Source: a virus (Duplodnaviria; Caudoviricetes). Taken from it: a stretch of DNA of 26,462 nucleotides. The translations under genes were made by a program, and so were the position numbers. This document shows positions 5,012 to 23,051 of this stretch, one piece after another (within the stretch, counting starts at the first letter, position 1; each line of letters begins with the position of its first letter). The stretch is taken from positions 1-26,462 of IMG/VR virus record IMGVR_UViG_3300020043_003758, one strand, 5' to 3'. A model generated the notes under the pieces. The model was given only the letters and a program-made list of their open reading frames with translations, made no database searches and had not been told where the DNA came from.

Positions 5012-5300
5012 GAAAGCAGCAAAGAAGGTCGCAGCCAAGAAGGTTGCGAGAACCCGCGTCACCGATGACGACCTCATCGGGGATGCACCCAAGAAACCAG
5101 CAACCAAGCAGGCGAAAGAACCGGAGACTCCGGCAGAGGTTGACCCCAACGCACGCATCGTGCGTGGAGTCGTCATCCCACCCTATCCACCCGAGCTTGC
5201 CACCATCCAGGATGGTGATAAGACCCCGGCAGTGAAGAAGTGGTTCAAGGACAACCACCCCGAGGCATACGATGCGCTCTACCAGAACACGGTAGGCTAA
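5004..5300 (+). CDS. Hypothetical protein with Lys/Ala-rich (histone H1-like) N-terminus, 98 aa
   Basis: ATG 5004 overlaps the previous gene end. MAKKAAKKVAAKKVAR followed by a small C-domain GDKTPAVKKWF..HPEAY. Confidence 0.7.
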   Translation: MAKKAAKKVAAKKVARTRVTDDDLIGDAPKKPATKQAKEPETPAEVDPNARIVRGVVIPPYPPELATIQDGDKTPAVKKWFKDNHPEAYDALYQNTVG

Positions 5301-5306
5301 CCCCCA

Positions 5307-5322
5307 AGCAACCCTAGACCGA
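5307..5322 (+). promoter_or_regulatory. Scaffold translation-initiation region; exact target of antisense element at 7924-7939
   Basis: AGCAACCCTAGACCGA, ending 7 nt before ATG 5330, is the perfect reverse complement of TCGGTCTAGGGTTGCT (7924-7939). Confidence 0.6.
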
Positions 5323-5329
5323 CAACAAC

Positions 5330-6217
5330 ATGAAACGATACAACCCAATCTCCCTCGCCCTTCTGCCGCTCATGTGGCATGACCAGTGGGAGCAGCAGAA
5401 CAAAGAAGGTGATGGCACAGGTGATCCACCACCTCCGAGCGATCCACCCCCACCCCTACTCGGTGAGGACCTATCCTTCACCCCCGGTTGGCAGGAAAAG
5501 CTGCCGGAGGAATACCGGCCCACCGCAGCCAACTTCAAGGACCTCCCATCCTTGATGAAGTCTCTGGTGGAGACCAAGCGGATGGCAAGCGGCAAGCTGG
5601 AAGGCTATGTCAAAGTCCCCGGCGAAAGCGCAACCCCCGAGGAGCTTGCGGCATACCGCAAGGCGCAAGGTGTGCCCGACTCCCCAGATGCCTATGATTT
5701 GAAAAAGCCTGATGGTGAACTCGGGAACTTCTACAATGAGGAGGAGGTCAAAGCGTTTGCTGCCAAGGCTGCTGAACTGGGTCTCACCAAACAGCAGGCA
5801 TCGGCACTTGCTGAATGGCGTTTGAACATCTCCAAGGACTACGACGACAAGGAACGCGAAGAGGGCAGAGCATTTCTTGCGCAGCGGGACAAGGTGTTCA
5901 CGGAGGCTTGGGGTGGCAAAAAGGAAGCAGAGTTGGTCGATGCACAGCGCATGTTGCTCACACTCGACCACTCCTTGAAACCCGAGCTGGTGAACTTCCT
6001 CGAACCCAAGCTGGTGGTGGCACTGGCTGCGTTTGCGAAAAAGCTCAACCCAGACGCGATGGTGGCGAAGGAGCAGTTCGAGAACAAGCTATCATCCACC
6101 TCCATGTCGAACGACATCGTGACCAACAAGAGCAATCCTGATTACGAGGCGTTTCACAACCCCCGCCACCCCAACCACGCTGCTGTGAAGCAGAAGGTGC
6201 TTGACGGGTTCAAGTGA
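5330..6217 (+). CDS. Capsid assembly scaffolding protein, 295 aa
   Basis: Between portal and capsid gene. Acidic/Pro-rich N-part, W...LPEE, GVPDSPDAY, A.ELGLTKQQA, EAWG, and C-terminal Y.....HP.H...V motif typical of these scaffolds. Confidence 0.8.
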   Translation: MKRYNPISLALLPLMWHDQWEQQNKEGDGTGDPPPPSDPPPPLLGEDLSFTPGWQEKLPEEYRPTAANFKDLPSLMKSLVETKRMASGKLEGYVKVPGESATPEELAAYRKAQGVPDSPDAYDLKKPDGELGNFYNEEEVKAFAAKAAELGLTKQQASALAEWRLNISKDYDDKEREEGRAFLAQRDKVFTEAWGGKKEAELVDAQRMLLTLDHSLKPELVNFLEPKLVVALAAFAKKLNPDAMVAKEQFENKLSSTSMSNDIVTNKSNPDYEAFHNPRHPNHAAVKQKVLDGFK

Positions 6218-6259
6218 TCTGGTAGCATTCGGGATGCCTCGTAGTGGGGGTATTTCGAT

Positions 6260-6272
6260 GTAGCTCATGGTG
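6260..6272 (+). ncRNA. Putative 3'-UTR antisense element complementary to the start of the collagen-like gene
   Basis: GTAGCTCATGGTG is the reverse complement of CACCATGAGCTAC (22535-22547, includes ATG 22539). It abuts the terminator stem. Function is inferred. Confidence 0.45.
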
Positions 6273-6274
6273 AG

Positions 6275-6310
6275 TTGCCCACCTCTTAACCGAGGTGGGC
6301 AATTTTTTTT
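6275..6310 (+). terminator. Rho-independent terminator after scaffold gene
   Basis: 11-bp perfect stem TTGCCCACCTC / GAGGTGGGCAA, 6-nt loop TTAACC, followed by T8. Confidence 0.9.
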
Positions 6311-6311
6311 G

Positions 6312-6339
6312 TTGCATTCTCCAGAATTGCCCTCACACT
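6312..6339 (+). promoter_or_regulatory. Possible sigma70-type promoter for the capsid transcript
   Basis: TTGCAT-N16-CACACT directly after the terminator T-tract (possible UP element). A promoter is expected here because a strong terminator precedes the capsid gene. Confidence 0.4.
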
Positions 6340-6356
6340 GGAATCTGACAGAGAAA

Positions 6357-6450
6357 GTTAGTGCAGGCCCGCAAGGATTCCCACAAGCACTAACCGGATC
6401 ACCCAGGACTGCATGACACCCGCAAAGCGGACTATGGCACGGCAGGACTA
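6357..6450 (+). promoter_or_regulatory. Structured 5' leader of major capsid mRNA
   Basis: Stem GTTAGTGC(6357-64)/GCACTAAC(6387-94). Second hairpin CCGC-AAA-GCGG (6420-30) inside CTGC/GCAG. CCCGCAA occurs twice and GGA(C/T) five times. Confidence 0.5.
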
Positions 6451-6484
6451 ACCCTCCTATCCAAATCCATACCATAATCGTGTC

Positions 6485-7393
6485 ATGTCTTTAACCATTC
6501 CTCAAAATTACATTCGGGCTTTCAGCGCAATCTGGGAGCACACCGTCCAGCAAGAAACCGCACTCCTCGCAGATCGCGTCACCATTGACGACTTCGAGGG
6601 CAAGGAAAAGGTCTATACCGACCTCGACCGAGTGCAGTTCGTCAAAAAGCGTGGTCGCCTCCAGAAGACCATCTCCCAAGAGGCTACTGCCCAAAAGCGG
6701 AAAATGAGTCGCCAGGACTTCTCCTGCCACATCATCTTTGACCGTGGTGACAACCAACTGCTCGGGATGCTCGGTGAGCCTACCTCGGAGATTCAGGTGG
6801 AAATGCGCTACGCCTTCCAACGCTCCATGGACGATGGTTTGATCGAAGCAGCTTCCGGCACCGTCTACGGTGGTGCGGACCCATATGTTACCCCAATCAC
6901 CCTGCCTAACTCGCAGAAGGTTGCGGTGAACTACGTCCCCTCCGGTTCTCCTGCCAACTCAGGTCTGACTCCTGACAAGCTCCAAGCTGCCATCAAGCGG
7001 TTTGAGGACAAGGAACTCAGCGTTAACAGTGAGGAGTTCGTGCTCGCCATCGGACCCAAGCAGAAGGAAGACCTCTTCCAGTATGTGAAGACTGCCCCAT
7101 CCAGTGCTTACGCCATGATGATCGGCAAATGGCTGAACAACCCCAACGAGAAACTGTTCGGGTTCACGGTGATTGTCTCCAACCGTCTTGCCCTCAACAC
7201 CAGCACAGATGTTCGCACCTGCCTTGCCTGGAGTCGCCGGGGCATCTACGCCGCACCGAGCAAGATGGAAGTGATGATCGACGTGCTGCCTGACCAAGAG
7301 CACGCTCGCCTCATCTCCAGCTACGGGCAGTGGGGCTTTATGCGCCGCTACGAGGAGAGGGTCCTTGAAATCTACTGCGACGAGTCCCCCTAA
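6485..7393 (+). CDS. Major capsid protein (BPP-1/T7-like type), 302 aa
   Basis: Follows the scaffold. N-terminal YIRAFS..WEHTVQQ..ALL, AFQRSMDD.LI.A, KLFGF.VIVSNRL, C-terminal G..R.EE.VLEI.C.E pattern of this capsid family. Confidence 0.88.
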   Translation: MSLTIPQNYIRAFSAIWEHTVQQETALLADRVTIDDFEGKEKVYTDLDRVQFVKKRGRLQKTISQEATAQKRKMSRQDFSCHIIFDRGDNQLLGMLGEPTSEIQVEMRYAFQRSMDDGLIEAASGTVYGGADPYVTPITLPNSQKVAVNYVPSGSPANSGLTPDKLQAAIKRFEDKELSVNSEEFVLAIGPKQKEDLFQYVKTAPSSAYAMMIGKWLNNPNEKLFGFTVIVSNRLALNTSTDVRTCLAWSRRGIYAAPSKMEVMIDVLPDQEHARLISSYGQWGFMRRYEERVLEIYCDESP

Positions 7394-7401
7394 CCCCTAA
7401 C

Positions 7402-7430
7402 TGCCCCGCCCAGTAACCCTGTGCGGGGCA
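7402..7430 (+). promoter_or_regulatory. Intergenic stem-loop without U-tract (mRNA stability/processing element)
   Basis: TGCCCCGC-C-CAG-TAACC-CTG-T-GCGGGGCA: 8+3 bp hairpin, 8 nt after the capsid stop. Confidence 0.6.
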
Positions 7431-7458
7431 AACCTTAACCCCTCAACTCCTCAGCATT

Positions 7459-7917
7459 ATGGCCTCAATCAAATCTCCAATCTTCACGAACCAGCAGAAC
7501 CGGGACATCTCCCTCCACGCAGATCAGTCTGTGCGGGAAATCGTGGGTGGTCTCAAAGTGGTCCGCATTCCTTACACTGTCCTCGGCACTGAGACGGGCA
7601 CCGACACCATTGAACTGTGCTACCCACAGATCGAAGGGGTCCTCATCCCTGAAATCTCCCGTGTGTCGAACTCAGGTGCAGGTGATGTGGATGTTGATCT
7701 CACCATCCGCAAAGTGAACGCTGCTGGCACTGCCACTGCGCTAACTGCTGCGGCTGCGGTGGACAACGACTCGGTTGCCTTCGCCCGTCCATCCGGCAAT
7801 GTGGTTCCCGCCATTGAAAAAGGCGATTACCTGCAAGCACTCACGGCTGTCACGGCAATGACTGCCGGGGACATCCTGGTGTTTGAACTGGTGTTCGCCG
7901 TGTTCAAAAACGACTAA
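7459..7917 (+). CDS. Probable capsid decoration/cement protein, 152 aa
   Basis: Small beta-rich Ala/Thr/Val protein immediately after the capsid gene and before the terminator, so likely co-expressed at high level. Confidence 0.6.
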   Translation: MASIKSPIFTNQQNRDISLHADQSVREIVGGLKVVRIPYTVLGTETGTDTIELCYPQIEGVLIPEISRVSNSGAGDVDVDLTIRKVNAAGTATALTAAAAVDNDSVAFARPSGNVVPAIEKGDYLQALTAVTAMTAGDILVFELVFAVFKND

Positions 7918-7923
7918 GCCCTT

Positions 7924-7939
7924 TCGGTCTAGGGTTGCT
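7924..7939 (+). ncRNA. Putative 3'-UTR antisense element complementary to scaffold translation-initiation region
   Basis: 16/16 reverse complement of 5307-5322. Partly displayed in the loop (TTCGGTCT) of hairpin AGCCCT/AGGGTT (7917-7936), 4 nt before the terminator stem. Confidence 0.6.
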
Positions 7940-7943
7940 CTGA

Positions 7944-7983
7944 GGGGGCAGAACTGCGGTTGCGGTTCTGCCCCTTTTCCTTT
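7944..7983 (+). terminator. Rho-independent terminator after capsid/decoration genes
   Basis: 14-bp stem GGGGGCAGAACTGC / GCGGTTCTGCCCCT (two G-U pairs), loop GGTT, followed by TTTCCTTT. Confidence 0.8.
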
Positions 7984-7995
7984 ACACTCATCGCC

Positions 7996-8793
7996 ATGAC
8001 TCAACTCGAACTCTGCAACCTTGCCCTCGACAAGTTGGGGGAACCCCCCATCTCTGCCCCCAACGCAGCAATGCCAGCAGCGCAGGCTTGCACTCGACTT
8101 TACCAACCAACCCTCGACACCTTGGTGCGGAAGTATCGGTGGAACTTCGCCCGCAAGTCCGTGCGTCTCAAAGCCGTGTTTGAGGAAATGGACGATCTGG
8201 TGGACAGTGGGGTTGCCGACCTCATTCAAGTGGAGGGTAACAACCATGGGCTGCAAACTGGGGATCGGGTGGTGTTGAAGGGCACAGGGGCAGATGGCAG
8301 CTACATCATCACCCGCATCGACTCGCATAACTTCACCTGCGACGACTCGAAGTTCACCTCGCTGCTCACCGTGGGCAGCTATCATGTCTCTCCACCCCAC
8401 ACATGGGAATATAAGATCGCACTGCCGGATGACTGCCTCGCCCTGCGCACGGTGGAGGGGTATGAGGTTGGTCGCCCACACCAGTTCTTTGTCCTCGAAG
8501 GGCAGAACATTTTCTGCAATCTGGAGGAGGTCGATGTCACCTACACGCAGAAGCAGACGGGTGGCACAGATGAGGCTAACTTCGACACTATATTCACGAA
8601 CCTGTTTTCGTGCATGTTGGCAGCAGAGCTTGCCATGCCGATCACGGGGGCGATGTCTCGCCGGGGGGATATGCAGGCACTCTACCAAGAGGAATTGAAC
8701 TCTGCGCTCATGTCCAATGTGTTTGAGCACCGTGACAACCTGATTGACCGAACCCAGGGTCCTACCTCCGCCATGACCCGCCAATACGCCTGA
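7996..8793 (+). CDS. Tail tubular protein A / adaptor (T7 gp11-like) with ~70-aa inserted domain
   Basis: ATG 7996 preferred because 7960 lies inside the terminator. ELCNLALDKLGEPPI, WNFARK...L, WEY..ALPDDCL, FDTIF.......LAAELA.PITG motifs. Confidence 0.85.
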   Translation: MTQLELCNLALDKLGEPPISAPNAAMPAAQACTRLYQPTLDTLVRKYRWNFARKSVRLKAVFEEMDDLVDSGVADLIQVEGNNHGLQTGDRVVLKGTGADGSYIITRIDSHNFTCDDSKFTSLLTVGSYHVSPPHTWEYKIALPDDCLALRTVEGYEVGRPHQFFVLEGQNIFCNLEEVDVTYTQKQTGGTDEANFDTIFTNLFSCMLAAELAMPITGAMSRRGDMQALYQEELNSALMSNVFEHRDNLIDRTQGPTSAMTRQYA

Positions 8794-8795
8794 TT

Positions 8796-11700
8796 ATGCC
8801 TCAGACCTCCCAGCAGAAAATCTCATTCAACTCGGGCATCATGTCCCCCAATCTGGCTGCACGGCTGGACTTGGAGAAGGCAGCAGCGGGTTGCCGCATC
8901 CTCGACAACTTCATCCCCCGAGACTCCGGCGCAGCGTTCAAGCGTGCGGGGTTTGAGTATCTGGGACGCACCAAGAACTCCGAGCCTGCGTGCCTGCGTC
9001 CGTTCAACTACTCGGTCAACACTCGGTTCCAGCTTGAGCTTGGAGCGGGTGAGGTGCGGTTCTGGGAGGATCGTGCGCGGGTGCATCTGCCCGTGGGGGC
9101 GAACTCCAACTGGAGTGGCACCACCACGCAGTATGAGATTGGGGAACCTGTGTATCAGTCCAACGTGCTCTACCGAGCAGCGAGCACGCACACCCCGAGT
9201 GGGGGCAACCAACCTCCTTCTGTTTCCTGGACAACCACCAATTTGCGCAGGTGGGTGACTGCTACCAGTTATGTGGTGGGGGACATGGTGTTGGTGGGTC
9301 TAGTCCACTACGTATGTGTGACAGCCCACACTTCAGGGGCGTCCTTTGTAGCTACAAATTGGGCGCAAGTAAGTGTGTTTGTCGGTTGGTCTGTCAGCGG
9401 AGTGTCTTATGCGTTGGGCGATAAAGTAAGCCATACCGTATCAGGCAACCGTAGGTTTTTTCGGTGCATCTCAGCACACACATCAAGCTCAGGCACGGAA
9501 CCTGGGGTTGGGGTAAATTGGACAACTCGTTGGGAGAATATCAGCACTCCACCGAATCATGCCACCGCATCAAAGGTGTATGTTGCTGGGGATGCGGTGA
9601 AGGTCGGCAGCACGGTTTATATCTGCAACGCTAATCACACCAGTAGCACCAGCAACGAACCAACAGACGGGGGGTCACCGTGGTCGGCTATTACCGGGAT
9701 TATTGCTTGGTCTGGGACAAGCACGTCACGGGCAGTGGGGGACTGGGTGTTCTACGGGAATAACATTTACAGATTCAATGTCAGTGTCACCACTGGACTT
9801 TACATTTCAGTAGCCCAATTCAACAACTCGGATGTGGTGTTTGCATTGGTGTCCAACCCACAGAACTGGACATCCTCACCCACCTACTCAGTCAACAACA
9901 TCGTCTCCAGTGGCACCCCGGCAGCACTCTATGTCTGCATCGCAGATCACGTCACAGCAGCAACCACTGAGCCAGGGACAGAAGGTGGATCATTTTATTG
10001 GCAGAAACTCAGCAATGTGTTTCTATGGGTGACTGCCACCAACTACACCGCTGGTGAGTATGTGGTCAACGCAGGCATCTCCTACCTCGTCCTCACCGAC
10101 CACACCAGCGGTGTGTTCGCCACCGATCTGGCAGCGAACCGATCGGTTGCAGCAGCCTACCCCCTCGAACTAGCACTGCCCTACACCATCGACGAGGCGT
10201 TCGAGGTGAACCCCGTGGCGATCAACGACCAAGTGTGGCTGCTGCACCCGAACCATGAGACACTGCTCCTCGAACGGTTCGCGGACACCGCATGGAAGGT
10301 GGGTCCGGTGAACTGGGATTGGCCCCCCATGCGCGATGAGAACTTTGCCAACGATCACACCATGACGGCATCGGGCACCACGGGCAACATCACCCTCACC
10401 AGTTCCAAGAAATTCTTCGACTCCCGCATGGTTGGTGCTTACATGCAGATCGCCCATCGCCGGGATCAGAGCACCGAGAAACTGTCCTTCGCTGCCTCCG
10501 GCACAGGCGATGCCCTGCGTGTGAATGGTCGGTTGGATGTCTTCATCTACGGCACTGCCTGGAAAGGCACAGTCCACCTGGAGTTCTCCGACGACGGCAC
10601 AACCAATTGGATGACGGAGCGATCTTGGGTGCAGCCAGTCGCCAACATGCGCACCATCTCTACCAACGTCACCACCCCCAAAGAGGTGTTCGCCCGCCTG
10701 CGGTTCGTGCGTGATGGTGCGGGCACTGCCAATGACTTTGGTGTGATCGAAGCTGCCAACTCCCGAGTCACAGGATTGGTGCAGATCACGGCTTATCAGT
10801 CCCCCACCTTGGTCAACGCCAAGGTCATCAAGGGAGTGTGGAGCACTGCTGCCACTACCTTATGGTCCGAGGGAGCATACTCGAACTACCGGGGTTGGCC
10901 AAGGGCAGCAACGGTGCATGAGCAACGTCTCATCCTCATCGGCACCGAGGACGAGTCGGAAAAGGTGCGGGCATCCCGGTTCGACGGGTTCTTCGACTTC
11001 ACCGAATTGACCTCAGATGATGGGGCACTTGCGTTTGTAGCGGCTAGCCGGGAGAGCAATGCGCTCATGTGGGTTGAGTCCTTTGGGAAAATCCTCGCAG
11101 CCGGATCGCTGGCTGAGGAGTGGTCGATCGGCAGCGGCAGTGAGGGCAAGATTCTCACCCCCACCAACCCACCACGCATTGAGCGTGAGACCCGAGTAGG
11201 CAGTTGCGACATGCCTGCACTCCTCCTCGGGGACGCACTCGTCTTTATCGCCAATGATCGGCAGCAGGTGATGGAGTTCAGCTACTCATTCTCCGACGAC
11301 AAGTACGTGAAGCAGAAGATGACCCAGCTTGCGGAGCACATGTTCAACTCGGGCATCAAGCAGGTCGCCGCATCTCGGCAACCGGACACCGTGCTCTACT
11401 GCGTGATGAACGATGGTCGTCTCATGTCCTTCACTTATGATCGTGGGCAGGGTGTGGTCGCATGGGCACAGCACACCACGGATGGTCTGTTCGAGTCAGT
11501 CTCGGTCATCTACGGTGGCGAACTCAACGCCGATGAGGTGTGGGTGGTGGTGAAGCGCACAGTCAATGGGCAGGATGTGCGCTACGTGGAGGCACTGCAC
11601 AAGGACACTGCCCGCTACCGCTTCGAGGGCACGATCAATGAACTCTGCTACTGCGACTCCGCGGTGCTCATCACCAACTCCCCGGCATCGACAGCAGTGG

Positions 11701-12161
11701 CAGGTCTCGACCATCTGGAGGGCAAGGCAGTGGTGGTGCTCGCAGACGGCATCGTGCGCACTGCCACAGTCTCCGCAGGTGCGATCACCCTCCCGGTGGC
11801 AGCGTCCACGGTGCGGGTGGGACTGCCCTTCACTGCCAAGCTCCAGGGCAACTGGCTGGACTTGCAACTCCAGGACGGCAGTTCGCAGGACAAAAAGCAG
11901 CGGGTGAGCAAGATCACCGTCATTTCCCAACAGTCCAACGGCATGGAGTATCATGCGGACCCCGACGAGGGCACAGGGCAGTGGTATTCGGAGGGGTTGG
12001 GCAACATCTCCGCAATCGCTCAACGGGTTACACGCCCAACCAAGTTCGAGGTGACGAACGTCGCCCGTCACTGGTGGGAGACCAACCTCACTTTGCGCTC
12101 TTCTCTGCCCTTGCCAGTCAACGTCCTCGCCATTATCTACAAGAATGAGTACTTTGGTTGA
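8796..12161 (+). CDS. Tail tubular protein B / nozzle (T7 gp12-like) with tandem carbohydrate-binding-like repeats, 1121 aa
   Basis: SFNSG.MSP.L.AR.DL, NFIP...GAA.KR.G, GWPRA...HEQRL, VVAWAQHTTDG.FESV, GLDHLEGK.V, VGLPF motifs of podoviral nozzles. Confidence 0.88.
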   Translation: MPQTSQQKISFNSGIMSPNLAARLDLEKAAAGCRILDNFIPRDSGAAFKRAGFEYLGRTKNSEPACLRPFNYSVNTRFQLELGAGEVRFWEDRARVHLPVGANSNWSGTTTQYEIGEPVYQSNVLYRAASTHTPSGGNQPPSVSWTTTNLRRWVTATSYVVGDMVLVGLVHYVCVTAHTSGASFVATNWAQVSVFVGWSVSGVSYALGDKVSHTVSGNRRFFRCISAHTSSSGTEPGVGVNWTTRWENISTPPNHATASKVYVAGDAVKVGSTVYICNANHTSSTSNEPTDGGSPWSAITGIIAWSGTSTSRAVGDWVFYGNNIYRFNVSVTTGLYISVAQFNNSDVVFALVSNPQNWTSSPTYSVNNIVSSGTPAALYVCIADHVTAATTEPGTEGGSFYWQKLSNVFLWVTATNYTAGEYVVNAGISYLVLTDHTSGVFATDLAANRSVAAAYPLELALPYTIDEAFEVNPVAINDQVWLLHPNHETLLLERFADTAWKVGPVNWDWPPMRDENFANDHTMTASGTTGNITLTSSKKFFDSRMVGAYMQIAHRRDQSTEKLSFAASGTGDALRVNGRLDVFIYGTAWKGTVHLEFSDDGTTNWMTERSWVQPVANMRTISTNVTTPKEVFARLRFVRDGAGTANDFGVIEAANSRVTGLVQITAYQSPTLVNAKVIKGVWSTAATTLWSEGAYSNYRGWPRAATVHEQRLILIGTEDESEKVRASRFDGFFDFTELTSDDGALAFVAASRESNALMWVESFGKILAAGSLAEEWSIGSGSEGKILTPTNPPRIERETRVGSCDMPALLLGDALVFIANDRQQVMEFSYSFSDDKYVKQKMTQLAEHMFNSGIKQVAASRQPDTVLYCVMNDGRLMSFTYDRGQGVVAWAQHTTDGLFESVSVIYGGELNADEVWVVVKRTVNGQDVRYVEALHKDTARYRFEGTINELCYCDSAVLITNSPASTAVAGLDHLEGKAVVVLADGIVRTATVSAGAITLPVAASTVRVGLPFTAKLQGNWLDLQLQDGSSQDKKQRVSKITVISQQSNGMEYHADPDEGTGQWYSEGLGNISAIAQRVTRPTKFEVTNVARHWWETNLTLRSSLPLPVNVLAIIYKNEYFG
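9111..10150 (+). repeat. Seven tandem CBM5/12 (ChtBD3)-like protein repeats within nozzle gene
   Basis: Repeated W....Y..GD.V......Y.C...HTS.....P......W pattern, e.g. WVTATSYVVGDMV..HYVCVTAHTSG, YALGDKV..FRCISAHTSS, YVAGDAV..YICNANHTSS. Confidence 0.75.
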
Positions 12162-12633
12162 GCGGGAGAATGATCGGGACTTGGTGCTGAAGGGCTTGCA
12201 GGCTCTTGGCATCTCCGAGGAGCATGTGCGTGAGCACGGCATCATCAATGCTGCGGAGTTCGCCCTTGCCCAGATGGACCAACTTGAGAACTACGAGGTG
12301 GAGCACTATGCCCTCCCCGGCTTCTTGGTGCGCCAAGCCCTGTTGCGGGCACCCAGCATCATCACCACTGAGCGGCACAAGCACTGGCACCCATTCGTCA
12401 TTTCCTACGGCAACGTGAGCGTGTTCAACGAACTCGACGGCACCGTGAAGCACATCCAGGCTATCGACGCACCGGGGGGTCACTTCACCTCCATCACCGA
12501 GCCGGGGACACGCCGTTTAATTTTCGTGCGTGAGGACACGTTATGGACTACCTTCCATCGGTGTGACCACGCAGACCCAAACGAGATGGTGCGTGAGAAC
12601 ATCATCCCCAACGACAACCCTCTTCTCCAATGA
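12145..12633 (+). CDS. Cupin-like hypothetical protein at the T7 gp13 position, 162 aa
   Basis: HYALPG..VR, RHKHWHPFVISYGNVSV, EPGTRR...EDTLWTTFH: His-rich double-stranded beta-helix-like pattern. Confidence 0.55.
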   Translation: MSTLVERENDRDLVLKGLQALGISEEHVREHGIINAAEFALAQMDQLENYEVEHYALPGFLVRQALLRAPSIITTERHKHWHPFVISYGNVSVFNELDGTVKHIQAIDAPGGHFTSITEPGTRRLIFVREDTLWTTFHRCDHADPNEMVRENIIPNDNPLLQ

Positions 12634-13463
12634 TTGAACATCTCCTCCATCTGCCTTTGGGCACCATGTTCTTCACATACACGTTCATGGCAGCAACCGT
12701 GGTGTCTGGTGTGGTGGGCGCAGTCGCCACGTATCGCCAGGGCAAAGAGGCACAGCGGGTGTCTGAACTGAATGCAGACCTCGCCAACCAAGAGGCACGG
12801 CAGCAGCTAGCCATTGGTCGGATGCAGGAGCAAATCTCCATGCAGCAGGCAGCAGCAGAGCGGTCTGCGATGATGGCTGAAGCAGCAGCGGCAAATGCCA
12901 ATGCGTCTGCCATCGACCAAGAGACACTGGCAAATGAGGCACGCAGCCGGGAGGAGCAGCGCAGGGCACGGGAGGAGGCACGGCAGCGATTGGCTGAGAC
13001 CGGGGGCATCTTCGCCGGAGCAGGCGTGGTGGGCACAACCGGGACACCCCTCGCAGTGCTGGCTGAGTCTGCCATGCTGGAGGAGGCGAACGTCATCGAC
13101 CAGCAGTATCTCACCAACGTGGAGAGCACCAAGTCCCGATGGGAAGCTGGGGTTGAGCGGGCAAACGCAGGACGGATCGCTGGAGCAGCGAACATGCAGT
13201 ATGCAATTTCCAAGAATGCGGCAAAGGTTTCTGGTGTGGCAGCGCAGATCGGTGCCCGTAACCGGATGACCCAAGCGGACATTGAACGGAGCGCAGGACG
13301 GGCAGCACGCAGGCAAGCCAATCTTGCAGCAGTGGGGCAGGTCATCGGTTCTGTTGGTACCGCAGCAGGGTCTTACTCCATGGGTGCCTCCCGTGCATCC
13401 ACCTCGGGCAGCTATCGCCCAAAAACTAGAAACCCAAGTGCCCCAAAAGACTACTTTTATTGA
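12630..13463 (+). CDS. Internal virion/ejection protein (T7 gp14-like), 277 aa
   Basis: Hydrophobic Gly/Ala N-terminus, Ala/Gln coiled coil, FAGAGVVGTTGTPL.VL motif, position after the nozzle, ATGA overlap. Confidence 0.7.
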   Translation: MIEHLLHLPLGTMFFTYTFMAATVVSGVVGAVATYRQGKEAQRVSELNADLANQEARQQLAIGRMQEQISMQQAAAERSAMMAEAAAANANASAIDQETLANEARSREEQRRAREEARQRLAETGGIFAGAGVVGTTGTPLAVLAESAMLEEANVIDQQYLTNVESTKSRWEAGVERANAGRIAGAANMQYAISKNAAKVSGVAAQIGARNRMTQADIERSAGRAARRQANLAAVGQVIGSVGTAAGSYSMGASRASTSGSYRPKTRNPSAPKDYFY

Positions 13464-13482
13464 ACCCCTGCCTAATTACCCA
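13463..13482 (+). repeat. 20-bp direct repeat, copy 1 (AACCCCTGCCTAATTACCCA)
   Basis: Identical to 13640-13659. Each copy lies 2 nt before an ATG. Confidence 0.95.
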
Positions 13483-13484
13483 TC

Positions 13485-13652
13485 ATGGATACCCCTTACC
13501 CTACTGAAATAGTTGTGAAGTGCGAAGAGTTCGACCTCAAAGTGCGGCTCATGCAGTTACCAGATACCGAAGACTGGGACAAAGTATGGGCAGAACTTGG
13601 GGCAGCACTGAAAGATGCGTATTCCCGCAGACCTCAACAAACCCCTGCCTAA
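13485..13652 (+). CDS. Small hypothetical protein, 55 aa (MDTPYPTEIVVKCEEFDLKVRLMQLPDTEDWDKVWAELGAALKDAYSRRPQQTPA); not in ORF track
   Basis: Fills the gap exactly, has the same start context as the next gene, and its TAA lies within repeat copy 2. Confidence 0.7.
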   Translation: MDTPYPTEIVVKCEEFDLKVRLMQLPDTEDWDKVWAELGAALKDAYSRRPQQTPA

Positions 13653-13659
13653 TTACCCA
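13640..13659 (+). repeat. 20-bp direct repeat, copy 2
   Basis: Identical to 13463-13482, 177 bp downstream. Confidence 0.95.
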
Positions 13660-13661
13660 GT

Positions 13662-15452: not shown

Positions 15453-15454
15453 TC

Positions 15455-18400
15455 ATGCCACTACTCGACGAAGATACAGCATTCAGCCTCGCAGATCGAC
15501 TCAGCATCCTCCCACCTGAGAGGCGCAACCCCAATGAGGTGAAATCCCTGTTCGAGTATAAGCAGCACCAACAGGAGTTGGGGTTGCCTCTATTCCCATC
15601 ACAGGAAGCGAAGGCGCGGGAGATGAACACTCAGTATCGCAACATCTTCACTGACATCAAGAAGGTGGACGAGTTCGCCCCATCAATGGCGCAGATCGCA
15701 GCCACATCCCCCGATCCAGACAAGACGAGGCAGATGTTCGCCAACCACGCCTTTCTCGCCAAGGAGTTGGATAAGCCGATGGAGGAGGTGCAGGCGAACT
15801 ACAACGAGTGGATGGGGGGATACTCACAGCAGGTGTGGGGCAAACGTGTTGCCGACACTGCTGGGTTCTACGGCATGGCACAGGGGCATGTCCGCAAGCA
15901 GATCGAAGCGGAGGAAGTGAGTGGTGAGGCGATGCGTCTTGCGCTCACCTCCGCAGCGATGGGCACCAACGACAGTGTTGGCGACTACCAGAAGTGGAAG
16001 GCGAGCACAGCAGGCAAGGCCCCAACGGTGGATGCTCATCGCCAATACTCCGCAGCTTACAATCAGGTCAAGGCGCGGATCGAACCGTATAAGCCCATCG
16101 TGGCAGGTGCGGTGAAGTCCCTGAAGCAGTTGATGGCAGGTGAGGGTGCAACGGCAGGCACCGAGCAGCGCATCGTGGATGCGATCATCGACCTCCCGCC
16201 CCAGGATCGCCCGCTCGTCCTCGCCTCCATCATGGCGGGTGCGCAGGCAACGGGTGAGGGTGCGGACAAGGACTGGACGTTCTGGCAGCAAACGGGTGAG
16301 TCTTTCTCCCGGCTGCTCAAAGGGTCTTTTGCAGGACAGAGCAGTGCAATGATGGACGCCACAATCGGGGCAGTGCGTGGTGGGTTCCAAGCGGACGAGA
16401 CTTTCCTCCCAGCGCAGCCCATCACTACCCCAGAAGCGGCACGGGAGTTTGTGCAGAACTCCCTGCTCAAGACCATGCAAGAGTCTCAAACTCCGGCTGA
16501 AATGCAGAGTGTGAAACCAGACGCCAGTTTGGTGAAACGGCAACCCACTCCCGAGGAAAAACGGATGCTCAACTCGGAGTTGAACCGAGTGCAACGGCAG
16601 ACGCAGATCGCACGGGAGATTGAGAATGCAGCAGTAACCGTTGATCCTGTGAAGAACGTGTTCGCTTCTGCCATTGGTTCCAGTCTCGCTATTCTCCCCG
16701 CATCCGCCATGGGTCCAGGAGGAGTGCTCATCGCCGCACAAGCCTACTCAGGCATGGAGTATGACAAGCTACGGGTGCAATACCCCACGATGTCACCACG
16801 GGCAGCGCAGTCCATTGCTGGTGTCTCCGGTGTGGTCATGGCAGGTCTTGACAAGTTGGAGGTGGACTTCCTCACCGACAAGCTGCCATCCCTGCGTAAC
16901 CTCATCGGTGGTGGGGTGATGAACAGTGTGCTCAAGCGAATGGGTGTGCGTGCAGCAGAAGCATTCGTATTCGAGAACGTGCAGGAGGGATTGCAGGACT
17001 TGTCCACACCTGTGGTGCAGGAGATTGCCACACGTCTCAATGACGACATTCCAGAACTGGACTGGAACAAGGAATGGGCGCAGTGGACCGAGGGGCGTGG
17101 GGATGTTGCACTGGGCACCCTGCCACTTGTCCTCATCGGTGTGGGCGCAGCAGCTTACAACGATGTCTCCAATGCGGCAGACATGATGAAGCAGGACAAC
17201 CTCTTGCAGCAGTTCGGGTTGCCCGAGCAGGACCGTGTGACTGTGATCGACCTCGCCAACAAGGGGGACATGGAGGGTGCCCAAGCAGCGTTGCGGGATG
17301 CTTACCTGCGCCGTGACCCTGCCATCGCAGCAGCGGCAATCAAGGACACCCCGGCAGCACAAGCAGCACAGCAATTCGACACCAACCTCACCCGCAGCCT
17401 TGCGCCACGTTACACGCAGGAAGGTGACAACCACGTCCTCACCTTTCCCGATGGGCGGGTCATCAAGGCTGAGTCATGGAGCGAGGCAAGGTGGTACATG
17501 GAGCAGGCGATGGGGGACACGCTCAACCAAGAGATTAGCACCGTGGCTGAACTCGGGAACTTCTTCACCTCGCAGCAGCGGGAGGGCATGACCGAGACCT
17601 TGGATGTGATCCCCGAGCAGCGCACCATTCAGCAGGACGTGGCAGAGGGGGTCATCACCGAGGAGCAGGCACGGGAGCGTGCAGCTATCGCAGGTGAGGC
17701 GTTCGGTCTCACCCCCGAGGAGGCGCAAGAGGAGGCGTGGACAGTGCTGGGGCGCAACACCACCGACACGCAGAACGATGTGGCGCAGAGTGCGATCCAA
17801 CTGTTCGAGGGTGCGGACGTGAGCACCGTGGTGGAAGAGGTGGTGGAGGGACGGTTAAAGGCAGCACTGGCGCAGAACAAATACTCGGCAGAGCAGGTGA
17901 AGAAGTTCATCGCACAGGTGGAGTCGGCAACGGGTGAGAAGTTCATGGTGAATGACACCGAGCAGGGCATCACTGAGGCGATTAGTGCCATCGTCGTTGC
18001 GGACGTGCTCGGGCGCAGGAAGGATGGCACCCAGCTACCAGCAGGTCTGGTGACTCGGGGGATGCTGGCTGCGGTGCAGAGGCAGTCCACACCCAAGGCG
18101 AACCGCAAGCTCATGGGCATGGTGGCTGCGTTCAGGTCATTCTTCCGGCAGGTGTTCTCCCGCGCCAAGGCGTTGAACAAAGCGAAGGGTGAAGGCAAGC
18201 TGGGGGCAGAGTATCAGGGGTTTGTGGATGAACTGCTCGGTGTCGATCCCCAGGTGCGGGAGTTGAACGTGGCTGCGGTTGAGGCACGGTCGATGGTGGG
18301 GACTGCGACTGGAGAGACGCAGGTTGAAGAAACGCAGCAGACCCCGATGGAGCAACAGGCAGCATCCTCTCTCGAACTTGGTGCTATCGTGCGCTACAAT

Positions 18401-21400
18401 GGTTATGTGGGCAGGCTGGAGCAGGACGGGCAGCGGTTCGTAGTGAGAGCACCCGATCAAGAAGTTGAGCTATCCGGTGAGGACTTGGTGGAGGTGGTGC
18501 TTGAACGTGATCCTGCCACCACCCGTGAACTGTTCGTGAAGGAGTTGGGTGCAATCGAGGTGAACCTCGTTGAAGGTAAGTTCACACCTGCCTCCTCCGG
18601 TCTTGCCATCATCTCCCCAACCGGGGTGCGACTGGTGCCACAGAATCGCACACTCAGCAAGAACGTGGTGCAGACACCAAACGGTGTAGCTTTTAGATTG
18701 CTTGACCCTACCAAGGGTAAGATCACTTTGGTCACAGGGCAGCAGGCACAACAGGCAATGGACGCGATGCTGGAAGCAGCAGCGAACGTGGAGAGCATGG
18801 GGCGCAAAGTGAGCTACTCGCTGGGACGGGCAACACCGCAGGACACCGAGTACTTGGCTGCTGTTGAGTCTGGCGACATGGAGACGGCGCAGCGGATGGT
18901 GGATGAGGCGGCTATATATGACAACACACCAAGGCAAAACTCTAGCACAGGTATTCCAAGAGGAGTTATTGAACCAGAACTCAGAAAGTTGTTTGCCTCC
19001 TATATTAAGGCTCAACGAGGCATCTCCTACGACTATGCCAGTTCAGGCAGGTCAATTAGACAGTCGTCTCCACAGCAAACGGCAGCGACTACCCGTGCCA
19101 GGAAAAAGCTAGTTGATAGGTATCGAGAACTGCACCCAGAAGATGACATGGGTATTGGCATTATGAACCAAGAAATTGCGTTCAATGAAGCAGTCCGAGA
19201 CCCGGTGGTTTATGATGAGCAAGGCAACGTCATCCCCCTGTCTCAGCGGTTCAACCCACAGGACAACCGTATAACCTACGCACTCGCACCCGCCAAGTTC
19301 AGTGAGCAGGTGATGACCGAGCTTGAGCAGCAACTCGGCAAGGACCCTGCCCAGCGTTGGGCATACGGTGTGGAGATTCAGCGCAGGCTTGCCAAACTGT
19401 CCACAGAGGTGGATCAGATGGCAGCAGCAGACCTCACCAGCAAGGAGCGGAAGGATCAACAGGAGCAGTTCGTGCGGGAGAAGTTCGATGAGCTTGTAGC
19501 GCAGATGCCGCCCAACCAACCCGTTGAGGAGTTGGGGAAGGTGATGGCACAAGCGAAGAAGGAGGGTGATGCATGGGCAGCACAGAACAAAGCCGATGCC
19601 CCAGGACAACGTGAGCGCATCATCGGCTACCAGCGCATCGTGAACGCTGCCCTCATGGGACTGCCCAAGAACCTGCGCACCGACATTGGTGGGTTCCTCC
19701 AAGTTGCCGATGCCCGTTCAGCCACCACTGCGTTGAAGGCGATCAAGAAGCACATTGCCCGCATCGGTGAGACCGTTGAGCGGTATCTGAAGGAGGAGAT
19801 TCAGACCGAGGTGAAGGCACTCATCAAGCGAGGCAAGCCCAACATGAAAGCTGGAGAGAAGCCGTCCAGCGACATCGGGGCAGAGGCATCCAACCTGTTC
19901 GCAGTGGCAGCAGCAGCGATCAAGATGGATGAGGTGCAGACCCTTGCTGCAATCGACAGTAGGGAGTCGGAAATCCTTAATGCCAAGAACCCGCCCACCC
20001 CCGAGCGGGAGCAGCAGTTGCGCATGGAGATTGAGGTTATCAACCTCGCCGGGGACCTCGACAACGCCGATGCTGCCCAGTCCAAGGCACTTCTCGACAC
20101 CCTCCAGAACATCTACGACGGGGGATACTTGGTGTGGCTGGATAAGCTCAACCGGGAGAAGGCGAAGATCGACAAGTTGAAGGACTTGTTCAAGGCAGGC
20201 ACAGGCTTGACCTCACCCCAAGAGGTCGAAGCGGCAATGGCGAAGATGCGGGCACGAGGCAAAGGGCAGGCATGGATCGACACCGTTCTCCTCGAACTCG
20301 GGAGCTTTAATGACCTCATCTACCGACTGGCAGGGGAGAACTCAGAGTTTGCCAAGGAACTGCTCAAGATGGAGCGCAAGTCCGACAACATGGTGCATGA
20401 CCTCAATGATGCCATGGAGAAGGACGTGGGCGACTTCTTCACCCGTCTCGCCGGATCGGAGCTTGCGGGGCAGCAGTTGCGTGCGGCGATGAGCCTCAAC
20501 ACCAAAAAGGGGATGCTCTGGTTAGGTGTGAACAAGATGGGGCAACCCCCGGTGAAGCACACCATCAAAGTCCCCGGCAAGCCAGATGCGGTGGAGTTCA
20601 CCTCGCAGATGGAAGCGATTCACGATTTGATGATGTGGCGGCAACCAGATGGACGACGCAACATGAGTGGCAAGTTCGACACCATGGGTGATCGCACCTC
20701 GACATGGGGATACGACGATGCGTGGGCACAGGAGGTCTCCGCACAACTCACCCCCGAGTCCTGGGCACTCATGGACTGGCTCACCGAGAAGTATCAGCAG
20801 GAGGGCAGGACCATCGACCCATTGGTGCGTGATCGCTACGGGGTGATGCTGCCACAGAACCCGCTCTATTCACCACTCACCAACTCCCCTCAACAGGTGC
20901 AGGCAGGGCAGATGACCAACCCCATCACAGGGGCAGCAATCAATGGCAGCATGGGCATCACCCCAGGTTCGCTCAAGGCCCGCAACAAGTCGGTCAACAA
21001 GCCACGCAAAAGGGATGCCCTGCGTGTGTTCATGGCGCACTCCCGGCAGATGAATCACTGGATTGCGAACTACGACTTCGCACGCACCATGCAGCAGTTG
21101 TTCCTCAACCGGGAGATGCTGGACTACGTGGAGGCGATGGGCGGCGAAGCAGCGTCCAAGTTGCTCCTCGCCCGTGTGGACATGGCAGTGGTCGGTGGGA
21201 TGCGGGATGCCGGGGTGCAGCTTGCCATTGATGGGGCGTTGAAGGATGCGGCAGGACGTGCTGCTGCCTCTGCGATCCTCGGGCGCATCTCAACCCTAGC
21301 CGTGCAGTCCACTCAACTCTTCGCAGGCAGTCTGAAGATGCCGCAAGCCACCTTCCTGCGTCTGTTCGGAAAGCTCAGTTCGGGACAACTCAACTGGGAC

Positions 21401-22270
21401 GCAACTCGCAAGAGTGACTTCATCCAACGCCGGATTGCGCAGAAGTCGCCATTGGTGCAAGAGGCGATGAAGGGATTGCTCAACGCCACCTCCCCCAGCC
21501 TCATTAAGAACCAGCAGCGCAGGTTGGCTGAATTGCTCGCAGGCTCGGATGCCTACTTCACCGCAGCCACGCACACCATGATCTACCATCACCAACTGGA
21601 GGTGGCGCAGGGGTTGGGCATGGGCAAAGCGGAGGCTGAGGCATACGCGATGGACGAAGCAGACAGGCAGACCGAGGAGGTGGCTCAACCCGTGCGCCAG
21701 TCGCAGCGTTCGCTCCTTGAACTGCGCAACTCGCAGACGTGGGCAGGACGGGTGGGCTGGGCATTTGCATCCGAGGCACGGCAGAAGTTGGCGATCATGT
21801 TGGTGGCTGCTGAAAAGGTAGCGAAGGACCCAAGCTGGAACAACATTGGCGAACTGGCACGGGTGGCAAACTACATGTTCACGATCAATGGGCTATTGGT
21901 GCAGGTGTGGAAACGGTCTTGGCTGCTTGCCCGCACTCCCGGTGGGGATGAGGAGGAGTTCGACTGGAAGAACATCCTGCTGTCCTCCCTTGCTGCCCCG
22001 ATGTCAGGCACTCCCGGTTGGCAGGCAATCGCTGACACGGGCAACCTATTCTCCTCGGTGCCTCGGGCTGAGGGTCCTGTGAAGCGCATGGTCTCAGCCA
22101 TCCTTGGGGAGGATCAACCTTATGACGGAGACCCCGTTAAGTTCATGCGGGATGCGGAGTTGCTGCTCGGTGCCTTATCCCTGGTATCCGACACGGCGAC
22201 CACCCTTTCTGCCTACTCCCACGTCTTTACCGACCTCGCAAAACTGATTGACGCACAGATTCAAGACTGA
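15455..22270 (+). CDS. Giant internal virion/DNA-ejection protein (gp16-like, polyvalent-protein type), 2271 aa
   Basis: Very long Ala/Glu/Gln-rich helical ORF after the two smaller ejection genes. Contains EYLAAVESGDMETAQRMVDEAA ... DPVVYDEQGNVIPLSQRFN module flanks. Confidence 0.75.
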   Translation: MPLLDEDTAFSLADRLSILPPERRNPNEVKSLFEYKQHQQELGLPLFPSQEAKAREMNTQYRNIFTDIKKVDEFAPSMAQIAATSPDPDKTRQMFANHAFLAKELDKPMEEVQANYNEWMGGYSQQVWGKRVADTAGFYGMAQGHVRKQIEAEEVSGEAMRLALTSAAMGTNDSVGDYQKWKASTAGKAPTVDAHRQYSAAYNQVKARIEPYKPIVAGAVKSLKQLMAGEGATAGTEQRIVDAIIDLPPQDRPLVLASIMAGAQATGEGADKDWTFWQQTGESFSRLLKGSFAGQSSAMMDATIGAVRGGFQADETFLPAQPITTPEAAREFVQNSLLKTMQESQTPAEMQSVKPDASLVKRQPTPEEKRMLNSELNRVQRQTQIAREIENAAVTVDPVKNVFASAIGSSLAILPASAMGPGGVLIAAQAYSGMEYDKLRVQYPTMSPRAAQSIAGVSGVVMAGLDKLEVDFLTDKLPSLRNLIGGGVMNSVLKRMGVRAAEAFVFENVQEGLQDLSTPVVQEIATRLNDDIPELDWNKEWAQWTEGRGDVALGTLPLVLIGVGAAAYNDVSNAADMMKQDNLLQQFGLPEQDRVTVIDLANKGDMEGAQAALRDAYLRRDPAIAAAAIKDTPAAQAAQQFDTNLTRSLAPRYTQEGDNHVLTFPDGRVIKAESWSEARWYMEQAMGDTLNQEISTVAELGNFFTSQQREGMTETLDVIPEQRTIQQDVAEGVITEEQARERAAIAGEAFGLTPEEAQEEAWTVLGRNTTDTQNDVAQSAIQLFEGADVSTVVEEVVEGRLKAALAQNKYSAEQVKKFIAQVESATGEKFMVNDTEQGITEAISAIVVADVLGRRKDGTQLPAGLVTRGMLAAVQRQSTPKANRKLMGMVAAFRSFFRQVFSRAKALNKAKGEGKLGAEYQGFVDELLGVDPQVRELNVAAVEARSMVGTATGETQVEETQQTPMEQQAASSLELGAIVRYNGYVGRLEQDGQRFVVRAPDQEVELSGEDLVEVVLERDPATTRELFVKELGAIEVNLVEGKFTPASSGLAIISPTGVRLVPQNRTLSKNVVQTPNGVAFRLLDPTKGKITLVTGQQAQQAMDAMLEAAANVESMGRKVSYSLGRATPQDTEYLAAVESGDMETAQRMVDEAAIYDNTPRQNSSTGIPRGVIEPELRKLFASYIKAQRGISYDYASSGRSIRQSSPQQTAATTRARKKLVDRYRELHPEDDMGIGIMNQEIAFNEAVRDPVVYDEQGNVIPLSQRFNPQDNRITYALAPAKFSEQVMTELEQQLGKDPAQRWAYGVEIQRRLAKLSTEVDQMAAADLTSKERKDQQEQFVREKFDELVAQMPPNQPVEELGKVMAQAKKEGDAWAAQNKADAPGQRERIIGYQRIVNAALMGLPKNLRTDIGGFLQVADARSATTALKAIKKHIARIGETVERYLKEEIQTEVKALIKRGKPNMKAGEKPSSDIGAEASNLFAVAAAAIKMDEVQTLAAIDSRESEILNAKNPPTPEREQQLRMEIEVINLAGDLDNADAAQSKALLDTLQNIYDGGYLVWLDKLNREKAKIDKLKDLFKAGTGLTSPQEVEAAMAKMRARGKGQAWIDTVLLELGSFNDLIYRLAGENSEFAKELLKMERKSDNMVHDLNDAMEKDVGDFFTRLAGSELAGQQLRAAMSLNTKKGMLWLGVNKMGQPPVKHTIKVPGKPDAVEFTSQMEAIHDLMMWRQPDGRRNMSGKFDTMGDRTSTWGYDDAWAQEVSAQLTPESWALMDWLTEKYQQEGRTIDPLVRDRYGVMLPQNPLYSPLTNSPQQVQAGQMTNPITGAAINGSMGITPGSLKARNKSVNKPRKRDALRVFMAHSRQMNHWIANYDFARTMQQLFLNREMLDYVEAMGGEAASKLLLARVDMAVVGGMRDAGVQLAIDGALKDAAGRAAASAILGRISTLAVQSTQLFAGSLKMPQATFLRLFGKLSSGQLNWDATRKSDFIQRRIAQKSPLVQEAMKGLLNATSPSLIKNQQRRLAELLAGSDAYFTAATHTMIYHHQLEVAQGLGMGKAEAEAYAMDEADRQTEEVAQPVRQSQRSLLELRNSQTWAGRVGWAFASEARQKLAIMLVAAEKVAKDPSWNNIGELARVANYMFTINGLLVQVWKRSWLLARTPGGDEEEFDWKNILLSSLAAPMSGTPGWQAIADTGNLFSSVPRAEGPVKRMVSAILGEDQPYDGDPVKFMRDAELLLGALSLVSDTATTLSAYSHVFTDLAKLIDAQIQD

Positions 22271-22284
22271 TACCCTCCACCCGT

Positions 22285-22542
22285 ATGAACTTACGCACTG
22301 TCTCCTCAACATCCTCCTGGGCAGCATTGCCCGATCTGCCCGCAAGAAATGGGCAGGTGGACATCCTCAACTCGACAGGGGAGGACTTGCAAATTCGCTA
22401 CGCCGGGGAGACCTCCGCAGGGCAGACGATCACCATCCCCGATAAGGGCACTGTGAGTCTGCCCGTGAACAGCAACGCGAACGAAGTGCAGATCAAAGCC
22501 ACCACCGGGGCTGCTGGTGTACAACTCCTTGTAACACCATGA
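22285..22542 (+). CDS. Small beta-rich hypothetical (probably virion) protein, 85 aa
   Basis: Fills the gap, typical start context, ATGA overlap with the next gene. Confidence 0.7.
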
Positions 22543-23051
22543 GCTACGGATCACGATTCGGTGGAGTCGGCGCAGGTGGGGGTTCGCTCACCTACAAAGG
22601 CAATGTCGCCGCTACGGGCGATTTGCCATCTTCCGGCAACTCCATTGGGGATGCCTACTACAACGAGACAACTCTCACTTTGTGGGCATGGTCTGGAACA
22701 GTGTGGTCGGACGTTGGGCCGATCATCCCTATCGCCGGATCGCAAGGTGTGCAGGGGGATCAGGGGATTCAGGGTGAGGTGGGGCCAACCGGACCGACTG
22801 GGCCAACCGGACCGACTGGGCCAGAAGGTCCTGCTGGACCCACGGGTGCAACCGGGGCGACTGGCGCAACCGGACCGACTGGACCCACGGGTGCAACCGG
22901 GGCGACTGGGCCAACGGGACCACAGGGGCCAGCGGGCACCATCTCCGTTTCCACGACGGCACCAAGCTCACCCGTTGAGGGTATGCCTTGGTTCAACCCC
23001 AACACCGGATTCCTGACCGTCTATTACGGCGGCAACTGGGTTCAAGTTTAA
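22539..23051 (+). CDS. Collagen-like fibre protein, 170 aa
   Basis: 23 consecutive Gly-X-Y triplets (mostly GPT/GAT), flanked by YKGNVA...LPSSGN.IGDAY...W.W.G..W.DVG and [13 protein letters not shown]...L.VYYGG.W modules. Confidence 0.85.
22782..22909 (+). repeat. Tandem DNA repeats in collagen region
   Basis: GGGCCAACCGGACCGACT x2 (22782-22817), plus a 31-bp identical repeat at 22834-22864 and 22879-22909. Confidence 0.9.

Follow-up and report, generated by a model that had tools for sequence, protein, structure and literature searches.

What sets the scaffold-to-coat protein ratio in tailed phages is an old question, and translational autoregulation of the P22 scaffolding protein was reportedly described by Wyckoff and Casjens in 1985. 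The scaffolding protein of P22 is translationally autoregulated (10.1101/2022.12.13.520362) and a wrong scaffold:coat ratio in T7 leads to polycapsids (PMC3185693). Pairing between RNAs has been described in several related settings. The small RNA (sRNA) GcvB silences C/A-rich, ACA-containing translation enhancers upstream of starts (PMC3879156), while two other sRNAs originate from a 3' untranslated region (UTR) in a messenger RNA (mRNA), namely FliX, from the mRNA of flagellin, the major subunit of a large assembly whose synthesis FliX lowers (PMC10578931), and CisR, which represses the cep mRNA of phage CTXphi (PMC13250501). Likewise, SviR, an sRNA of the phage satellite PLE, pairs near the start of a gene beside the phage capsid operon and lowers its translation (10.1101/2022.04.08.487710). 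Here we analyze a candidate element of this kind in the whole 26,462-base virus record IMGVR_UViG_3300020043_003758 of IMG/VR (Duplodnaviria; Caudoviricetes; hereafter the window), in which the 3' UTR behind the capsid and cement genes of a podophage is complementary to the leader of its putative scaffold gene. Sequence comparison indicates that this antisense element, reaching from the tail of the capsid mRNA to the scaffold operon, is real, covarying and patchy across lineages.

The locus resembles GcvB of enteric bacteria in that enhancer-type C/A-rich stretches upstream of starts would be targeted by one seed with several targets, and differs from this stand-alone host sRNA in having its seed in the tail of a phage structural mRNA and in its long, nearly perfect match (PMC3879156). 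As for FliX and CisR, the 3' end of an mRNA would regulate other mRNAs, here predicted from sequence alone, although both of these sRNAs are host-encoded and bind Hfq, and FliX pairs inside coding regions (PMC10578931, PMC13250501). A 3' UTR motif that pairs with a translation-start region is also known from icaR of Staphylococcus aureus, where the pairing blocks initiation and makes a substrate for RNase III; however, icaR occludes its own Shine-Dalgarno (SD) sequence within one mRNA, whereas the targets here are other, SD-less genes behind a terminator (PMC3868564). The targets of the capsid 3' UTR contain no SD-like word and, in this respect, do not follow icaR, in which the gene's own SD sequence is the target. 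In contrast to SviR, a separate parasite RNA directed against the phage, the phage's own capsid mRNA tail would tune the phage's own genes (10.1101/2022.04.08.487710), and although control of scaffold supply at translation, as proposed here for a podophage, recalls P22, the scaffold protein itself acts there and an RNA of the coat operon would act here (10.1101/2022.12.13.520362). Features of a 3' UTR-derived sRNA are found for this pairing, since the seed lies in a 3' UTR that ends at a predicted intrinsic terminator and its complementarity to the starts of other genes covaries. No phage capsid-UTR antisense element was reported in the full-text literature searched, subscription papers and supplements being outside its scope, and word look-up in a 2025 review of phage sRNAs (PMC12197685) and of a giant-phage transcriptome paper (PMC11512511) found none.

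Complementarity between the capsid-cement 3' UTR and the scaffold leader

A first-pass annotation of the window had noted that two G/U-rich segments preceding terminators are exact reverse complements of the start region of another structural gene, and this was verified. In link 1, positions 7924-7939 in the capsid-cement 3' UTR match 5307-5322 over 16/16 nucleotides (nt), from -23 to -8 of the scaffold ATG (5330), leaving the ATG itself uncovered. In link 2, positions 6260-6272 in the scaffold 3' UTR match 22535-22547 over 13/13 nt, from -4 to +9 of a collagen-repeat gene. G and U make up 12/16 and 9/13 bases of the two segments, respectively, and by folding both sit 0-2 nt 5' of a strong U-tailed hairpin. 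The description of the starts as SD-less and G-poor also held, with an SD-like four-base word at 2/24 starts and a G fraction of 0.12 compared to 0.29 in the window, while their supposed single-strandedness was predicted for the scaffold site (mean unpaired probability 0.82) and not for the collagen start (0.26). The parts relevant to link 1 are as follows.

7924..7939, + strand: antisense seed of the capsid-cement 3' UTR, extending across the loop (7923-7930) and the 3' arm of the small hairpin 7917-7936
7942..7985, + strand: T2, intrinsic-terminator-like hairpin (7942-7977) with a U-rich tail, closing the capsid-cement unit; 16-pair stem predicted, region z -4.7
5307..5322, + strand: main target, the SD-less and C/A-rich leader of the scaffold gene at -23 to -8; ranked first among 26 start regions, -23.7 kcal/mol, unpaired probability 0.82
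4974..4996, + strand: second candidate target, in the leader of a gene with a GDKTP motif; imperfect two-block site overlapping the end of the preceding open reading frame (ORF); second-best start, -15.4 kcal/mol
6272..6310, + strand: T1, intrinsic-terminator-like hairpin after the scaffold gene (6272-6305 in the scan); 14 pairs and a U run, found by pattern scan and folding
6312..6339, + strand: promoter-like site of the capsid-cement unit; weak sigma-70 match seen by eye and missed by the scan

T2 was found by folding and not by the pattern scan, and its stem is retained with base changes in L002 and L003 (L-, G- and P-numbers are our labels for related loci, whole records and proteins). A search with the covariance models of Rfam 15 gave no family match for the element, one chance-level match elsewhere in the window (E 0.21), and only a transfer RNA (tRNA) in 13 related loci.

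Composition-matched shuffles, which the first-pass annotation had named as a control, were applied to both matches: none of 20000 shuffled capsid UTRs reached 16 nt at the 24 start regions (maximum 14), and for the scaffold UTR 13 nt was reached in 48/20000 shuffles. When the whole + strand was searched instead, shuffles gave matches as long in 1/3000 and 78/3000 cases, respectively. These statistics are optimistic, the window containing 25 exact inverted matches of at least 13 nt compared to a shuffled mean of 8; since shuffles thus understate the background of inverted matches, the window alone could not decide the matter and relatives were therefore compared. A second exact 16-nt inverted match, between 12173-12188 and 13125-13140, lies in coding sequence on both sides, is retained over 14 nt in L001 and was treated as background.

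Three records, L007, L008 and L009, have capsids about 90% identical to that of the window. L007 has the same UTR seed as the window and keeps 14 nt of the match. In both L008 and L009, the seed has changed from GGTCT to GGTCC and the scaffold leader from AGACC to GGACC, and the same AGACC to GGACC change is found in the leader of the GDKTP-motif gene. The exact match in these two records is down to 8 nt, yet the predicted duplex spans about 22 nt, interrupted by a few mismatches (-25.9 and -20.3 kcal/mol). Across the four close genomes binding energies range from -20 to -26 kcal/mol with 0/200 leader shuffles as good in each, and the scaffold start outranks all other starts in the L008 and L009 records (40 and 44 starts), as it does among the 26 of the window. 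By these sequences, the seed and the two leaders change together in close relatives, in one evolutionary event seen at three sites rather than in many, and the leader of the GDKTP-motif gene, overlooked in the first-pass annotation, is likely a second target of the capsid UTR.

In more distant relatives, with capsids 34-46% identical to that of the window (58% in L010), the scaffold leader is matched by other words, over 12 nt in L059 and 10 nt in L057 and L058, and by split matches in L012 and L010; in L057 and L059 the UTR complements one 9-nt word that is present in both leaders. In each of nine chosen genomes the cognate leader came first or second out of 25, and leader shuffles supported the cognate pairing in six (0-2/200 as good). 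For the start of the GDKTP-motif gene the cognate UTR was ranked first in 8 of 13 chosen loci. A second set of loci, gathered through the scaffold alignment, gave matches to genes between portal and scaffold (12 nt in L120, 10 nt in L137, 11 nt in L156), and L209 likewise has a 12-nt match to a gene upstream of the scaffold. Under a fixed rule, in which the first 50 nt after the cement stop were compared with starts from -35 to +15 and one locus was taken per cluster at 70% capsid identity (70/99 loci usable), 6/34 clusters reached 10 nt compared to 0.24 expected from non-cognate pairs, while three controls on the same 34 clusters, pairing the scaffold UTR with the same starts, the capsid UTR with other starts, or like strands, gave nothing above 8 nt. 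When a held-out third set (42/74 loci usable; 7 new clusters with a UTR of at least 25 nt) was pooled with these, 6/41 capsid-sequence clusters matched an upstream-operon start exactly over 10 nt or more, compared to 0.35 expected (binomial p 1.3e-6); without the window's own cluster the figure was 5/40 (p 2.3e-5), and for the scaffold start alone it was 4/41 compared to 0.1 expected. Placed on a tree of capsids, the strong cases are spread over four subtrees separated by negative lineages, so that the element was either gained several times or lost often.

Several observations weigh against this reading. The set of targets was broadened from the scaffold to the upstream operon after the matches between portal and scaffold had been seen. 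No match of even 9 nt was found in the 7 held-out clusters, and 35/41 clusters overall lack a 10-nt match; because the held-out clusters gave no match, the element is patchy across lineages. In most held-out clusters the stretch from stop codon to hairpin is short or not G/U-rich. Leader shuffles were non-significant in L010 (113/200), L057 (44/200) and L058 (20/200), and at the start of the GDKTP-motif gene the cognate UTR ranked only 8th and 10th in two of the 13 loci. L057 and L059, being sister lineages whose seeds are related, are not fully independent. In most pairs the RNA duplexes of the opposite strands have equal or better energies, and since they are equally stable, G-U pairing does not distinguish the sense strands. 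Finally, the scaffold gene owes its name to its location ahead of the capsid gene.

A small hairpin immediately 5' of the terminator carries the seed in many positive lineages, the seed being within its loop or running across it. Several lineages in which the scaffold start overlaps the upstream stop have a cement UTR that runs nearly straight into the terminator, and no match. In whole records the capsid UTR is also complementary over 10-11 nt to starts far from the head module (of the genes at 10582 in G028, at 10177 in G027 and at 3974 in G004), and by this sequence evidence its target set may be wider than the head module. In seed-less lineages, namely L024 (5460-5530), L019, L027-L029, L046, L049, L051 and L068, the capsid-operon terminator is immediately followed by a tRNA-like gene, which Rfam confirms for L024 only.

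The scaffold 3' UTR and the collagen-gene start

Link 2 joins two sites of the window.

6260..6272, + strand: segment before T1; 13-nt complement of the collagen-gene start, with a conserved core complementary to a common start context
22535..22547, + strand: start of the collagen-repeat gene (Pfam Collagen); the match is real, its status as a target unsupported

The first-pass annotation had seen in the two matches the same architecture used twice, forming a chain from capsid to scaffold to fibre, and had expected complementarity to be kept in homologous phages. This expectation was borne out for the capsid UTR and the scaffold leader and not for the scaffold UTR and the collagen gene, since in both relatives that hold the two ends (L005 and L006) the match is only 8-9 nt long and the gene at this place is not collagen. 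Within the window the collagen start, which is predicted to be mostly paired, ranks 11 of 24 starts for the scaffold UTR, outside the top five. The conserved core of 6260-6272 is the complement of a CCATGA start context that occurs at 5/24 starts. The scaffold-to-fibre link and with it the two-step chain were thus rejected, the chain being unsupported because this link fails in relatives, and the 13-nt match is most likely incidental.

In the whole record G001 the best match of the scaffold UTR is 11 nt long and falls on a gene on the other strand. Genome-wide in 20 records, 4/782 pairs reached at least 10 nt compared to 2.15 expected; the counts were 24 compared to 7.8 expected at 9 nt and 2 compared to 0.32 at 11 nt. 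It is conceivable, though doubtful, that the scaffold UTR carries a weak general anti-start arm. Other targets of this UTR (the adaptor gene, the tail tube gene and a gene of 85 amino acids) were examined, and none was consistent.

Gene assignments and neighboring features

The window contains the virion module of a podophage and encodes terminase, portal, small genes, a putative scaffold, the major capsid protein, a cement-like gene, adaptor, tail tube, internal proteins and fibres. The genes that flank the element are the following.

5004..5300, + strand: GDKTP-motif gene, 98 amino acids, upstream of the scaffold gene; an alignment of 11 positional homologues has a conserved GDKTP-like motif and forms one family
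5330..6217, + strand: putative capsid scaffold gene, 295 amino acids; PHROG 3742 (unknown function), E 1.5e-25, and weakly PHROG 458 ('protease'), E 1e-4
6485..7393, + strand: major capsid protein gene; Pfam PF19821, E 8e-34; PHROG 3437
7459..7917, + strand: putative capsid cement/decoration gene, 152 amino acids; all-beta fold, model pLDDT 85.8

Neither the GDKTP-motif gene nor the other small upstream genes had a PHROG match, and the putative scaffold protein had none in Pfam; the scaffold is named from its place before the capsid gene. The cement-like assignment is likewise putative and comes from a confident structural model and its best matches among solved structures in the PDB, a 140-residue chain from the capsid of cyanophage Pam1 (E 8.7e-5) and the cement protein of KHP40 (E 3.4e-4), both with a TM-score of about 0.5; against PHROG the family gave two weak single-member matches. 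Capsid homologues in isolated phages are all less than 30% identical, while four were found in cellular genomes at 41-47% identity, three of them in Verrucomicrobia records. A metagenome scan returned two short contigs, neither with the scaffold leader.

The capsids of the closest relatives are about 352 residues long (P0001-P0011; L001 3537-3690) and carry a hydrophobic N-terminal extension of 50 residues. The capsid gene of the window, starting at 6485, lacks these 150 bases and begins directly at the capsid domain, and more distant capsids likewise have no extension; its absence from the window could be a real loss or an assembly feature. The capsid 5' leader (6345-6484, about 140 nt) has predicted stems that close relatives preserve by compensatory changes, and it contains a pair of similar GGCCC/GACCC...GGA(C/T) modules, with look-alike twin modules in many distant loci and no Rfam match; from its sequence it is possibly a protein-binding operator. 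Ahead of the capsid leader in L024, L029 and L046, the promoter-like site often holds a spaced palindrome, TTGC...GCAA, which suggests the site of a dimeric regulator. In L046 and L027 the hairpin that ends the scaffold unit is complementary over 10 nt and 8 nt, respectively, to a small upstream gene's leader at -20, and this hints at a variant whose seed is in T1. Elsewhere in the window, near-identical leaders of about 20 nt (13459-13484 and 13636-13661) precede a 55-residue ORF and a gene of 596 residues, and L002 (12 nt) and L003 (17 nt) have the motif's complement far upstream, in a region absent from the window.

Proposed mechanism and alternative explanations

We propose that the 3' end of the capsid-cement mRNA pairs in trans with the leaders of the scaffold gene and the preceding gene and damps their translation when capsid mRNA is abundant, a reading that the sequence comparisons make, in our judgment, modestly probable. 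T1 is predicted to separate scaffold and capsid transcripts. A terminator-like hairpin lies 3' of the scaffold gene in 5/6 strong clusters, and among the 41 cluster representatives a T1-like hairpin follows this gene in 21, with TTG[AC] behind it in 18 of the 21, which suggests a separate capsid transcript in relatives as well. T1 and the new promoter would put scaffold and capsid on separate transcripts, so that pairing would occur mostly between molecules. The G/U-rich loop would nucleate on the C/A-rich leader and zip to 10-20 pairs, a length that may suffice to dispense with Hfq, and the duplex would hide the single-stranded C/A-rich stretch on which an SD-less start would depend and may invite cutting by RNase III. 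The active species could be the whole capsid-cement mRNA or a processed 3' fragment, and the outcome would be a feedback that caps scaffold supply relative to coat as coat mRNA rises. GcvB, for its part, is Hfq-dependent. The tested PLE targets of SviR are regulated without need for Hfq or ProQ (10.1101/2022.04.08.487710). Three Verrucomicrobia-labelled genomes with related capsid genes had no Hfq family match (0/3), in a search confined to Hfq and in genomes whose completeness is unstated and which may differ from the phage host.

The same pairing could instead form in cis, in transcripts that read through from the scaffold leader to T2, and the resulting loop of 2.6 kb would block the start or create a site for RNase III. 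The best-supported targets are all upstream, on the same strand and within about 4 kb, the icaR case is one of 5'-3' UTR pairing within a single mRNA (PMC3868564), and T1 was not found by rule in 20/41 representatives, L156 included. However, T1 is a hairpin of 14 pairs with a U run, followed by a promoter-like site, and ribosomes would be translating three genes between the arms, and we consider pairing in cis unlikely. It is somewhat less likely still that the pairing acts on the capsid transcript, the leaders altering its stability or weakening T2 and thereby tuning read-through into the tail genes, or that it stimulates translation. In four close genomes the predicted duplex does reach the first bases of the T2 5' arm, and the lowest-energy complex of L007 opens outer T2 pairs, but the seed of L059 stops about 10 nt before the terminator, without invasion, every positive lineage has its targets at start codons or immediately before them, and there would be nothing for pairing to open because the leaders are already unstructured.

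Two further explanations were weighed. The repeats might be a DNA motif, with a direct copy ahead of each of two genes and an inverted one behind the cement gene serving as sites of a phage protein or as promoter elements, the inverted one driving an antisense RNA. The stability of the opposite-strand duplexes and the word common to two leaders in L057 and L059 are in line with this, but the 16-mer has only two copies in the window, even with 4 mismatches allowed, the word varies between lineages, its distance to the ATG ranges from -25 to overlapping, the matches contain bulges, and the UTR copy is often in a hairpin loop, all of which makes a DNA motif very improbable. Chance, by which G/U-rich 3' UTRs meet C/A-rich leaders and the match is noticed post hoc, probably does account for the 13-nt collagen match, and it gains some weight from a real inverted-match background about three times the shuffled one and from the lack of a match in most clusters, including all 7 held-out ones. 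For link 1, however, we give it the smallest probability of all and regard it as largely refuted, since the excess of cognate over non-cognate pairs persists without the window, the within-genome controls are flat, and three sites change together in close relatives.

More broadly, pairing in trans would make podophage capsid mRNAs bifunctional, with a 3' hairpin that acts as a chaperone-free antisense regulator, its seed re-evolving with two leaders to meter scaffold versus coat, and with the scaffold UTR perhaps as a second, general anti-start arm, a proposal to which we assign an even chance. The covariation of one seed with two leaders gives a precise and cheap test of mRNA-to-mRNA feedback in virion assembly. 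The element would also show how SD-less starts can be regulated and supply short natural antisense modules with known partners. If true, it would amount to a circuit that sets stoichiometry in phage head assembly by RNA only, and it may be widespread among phages whose starts lack an SD sequence.

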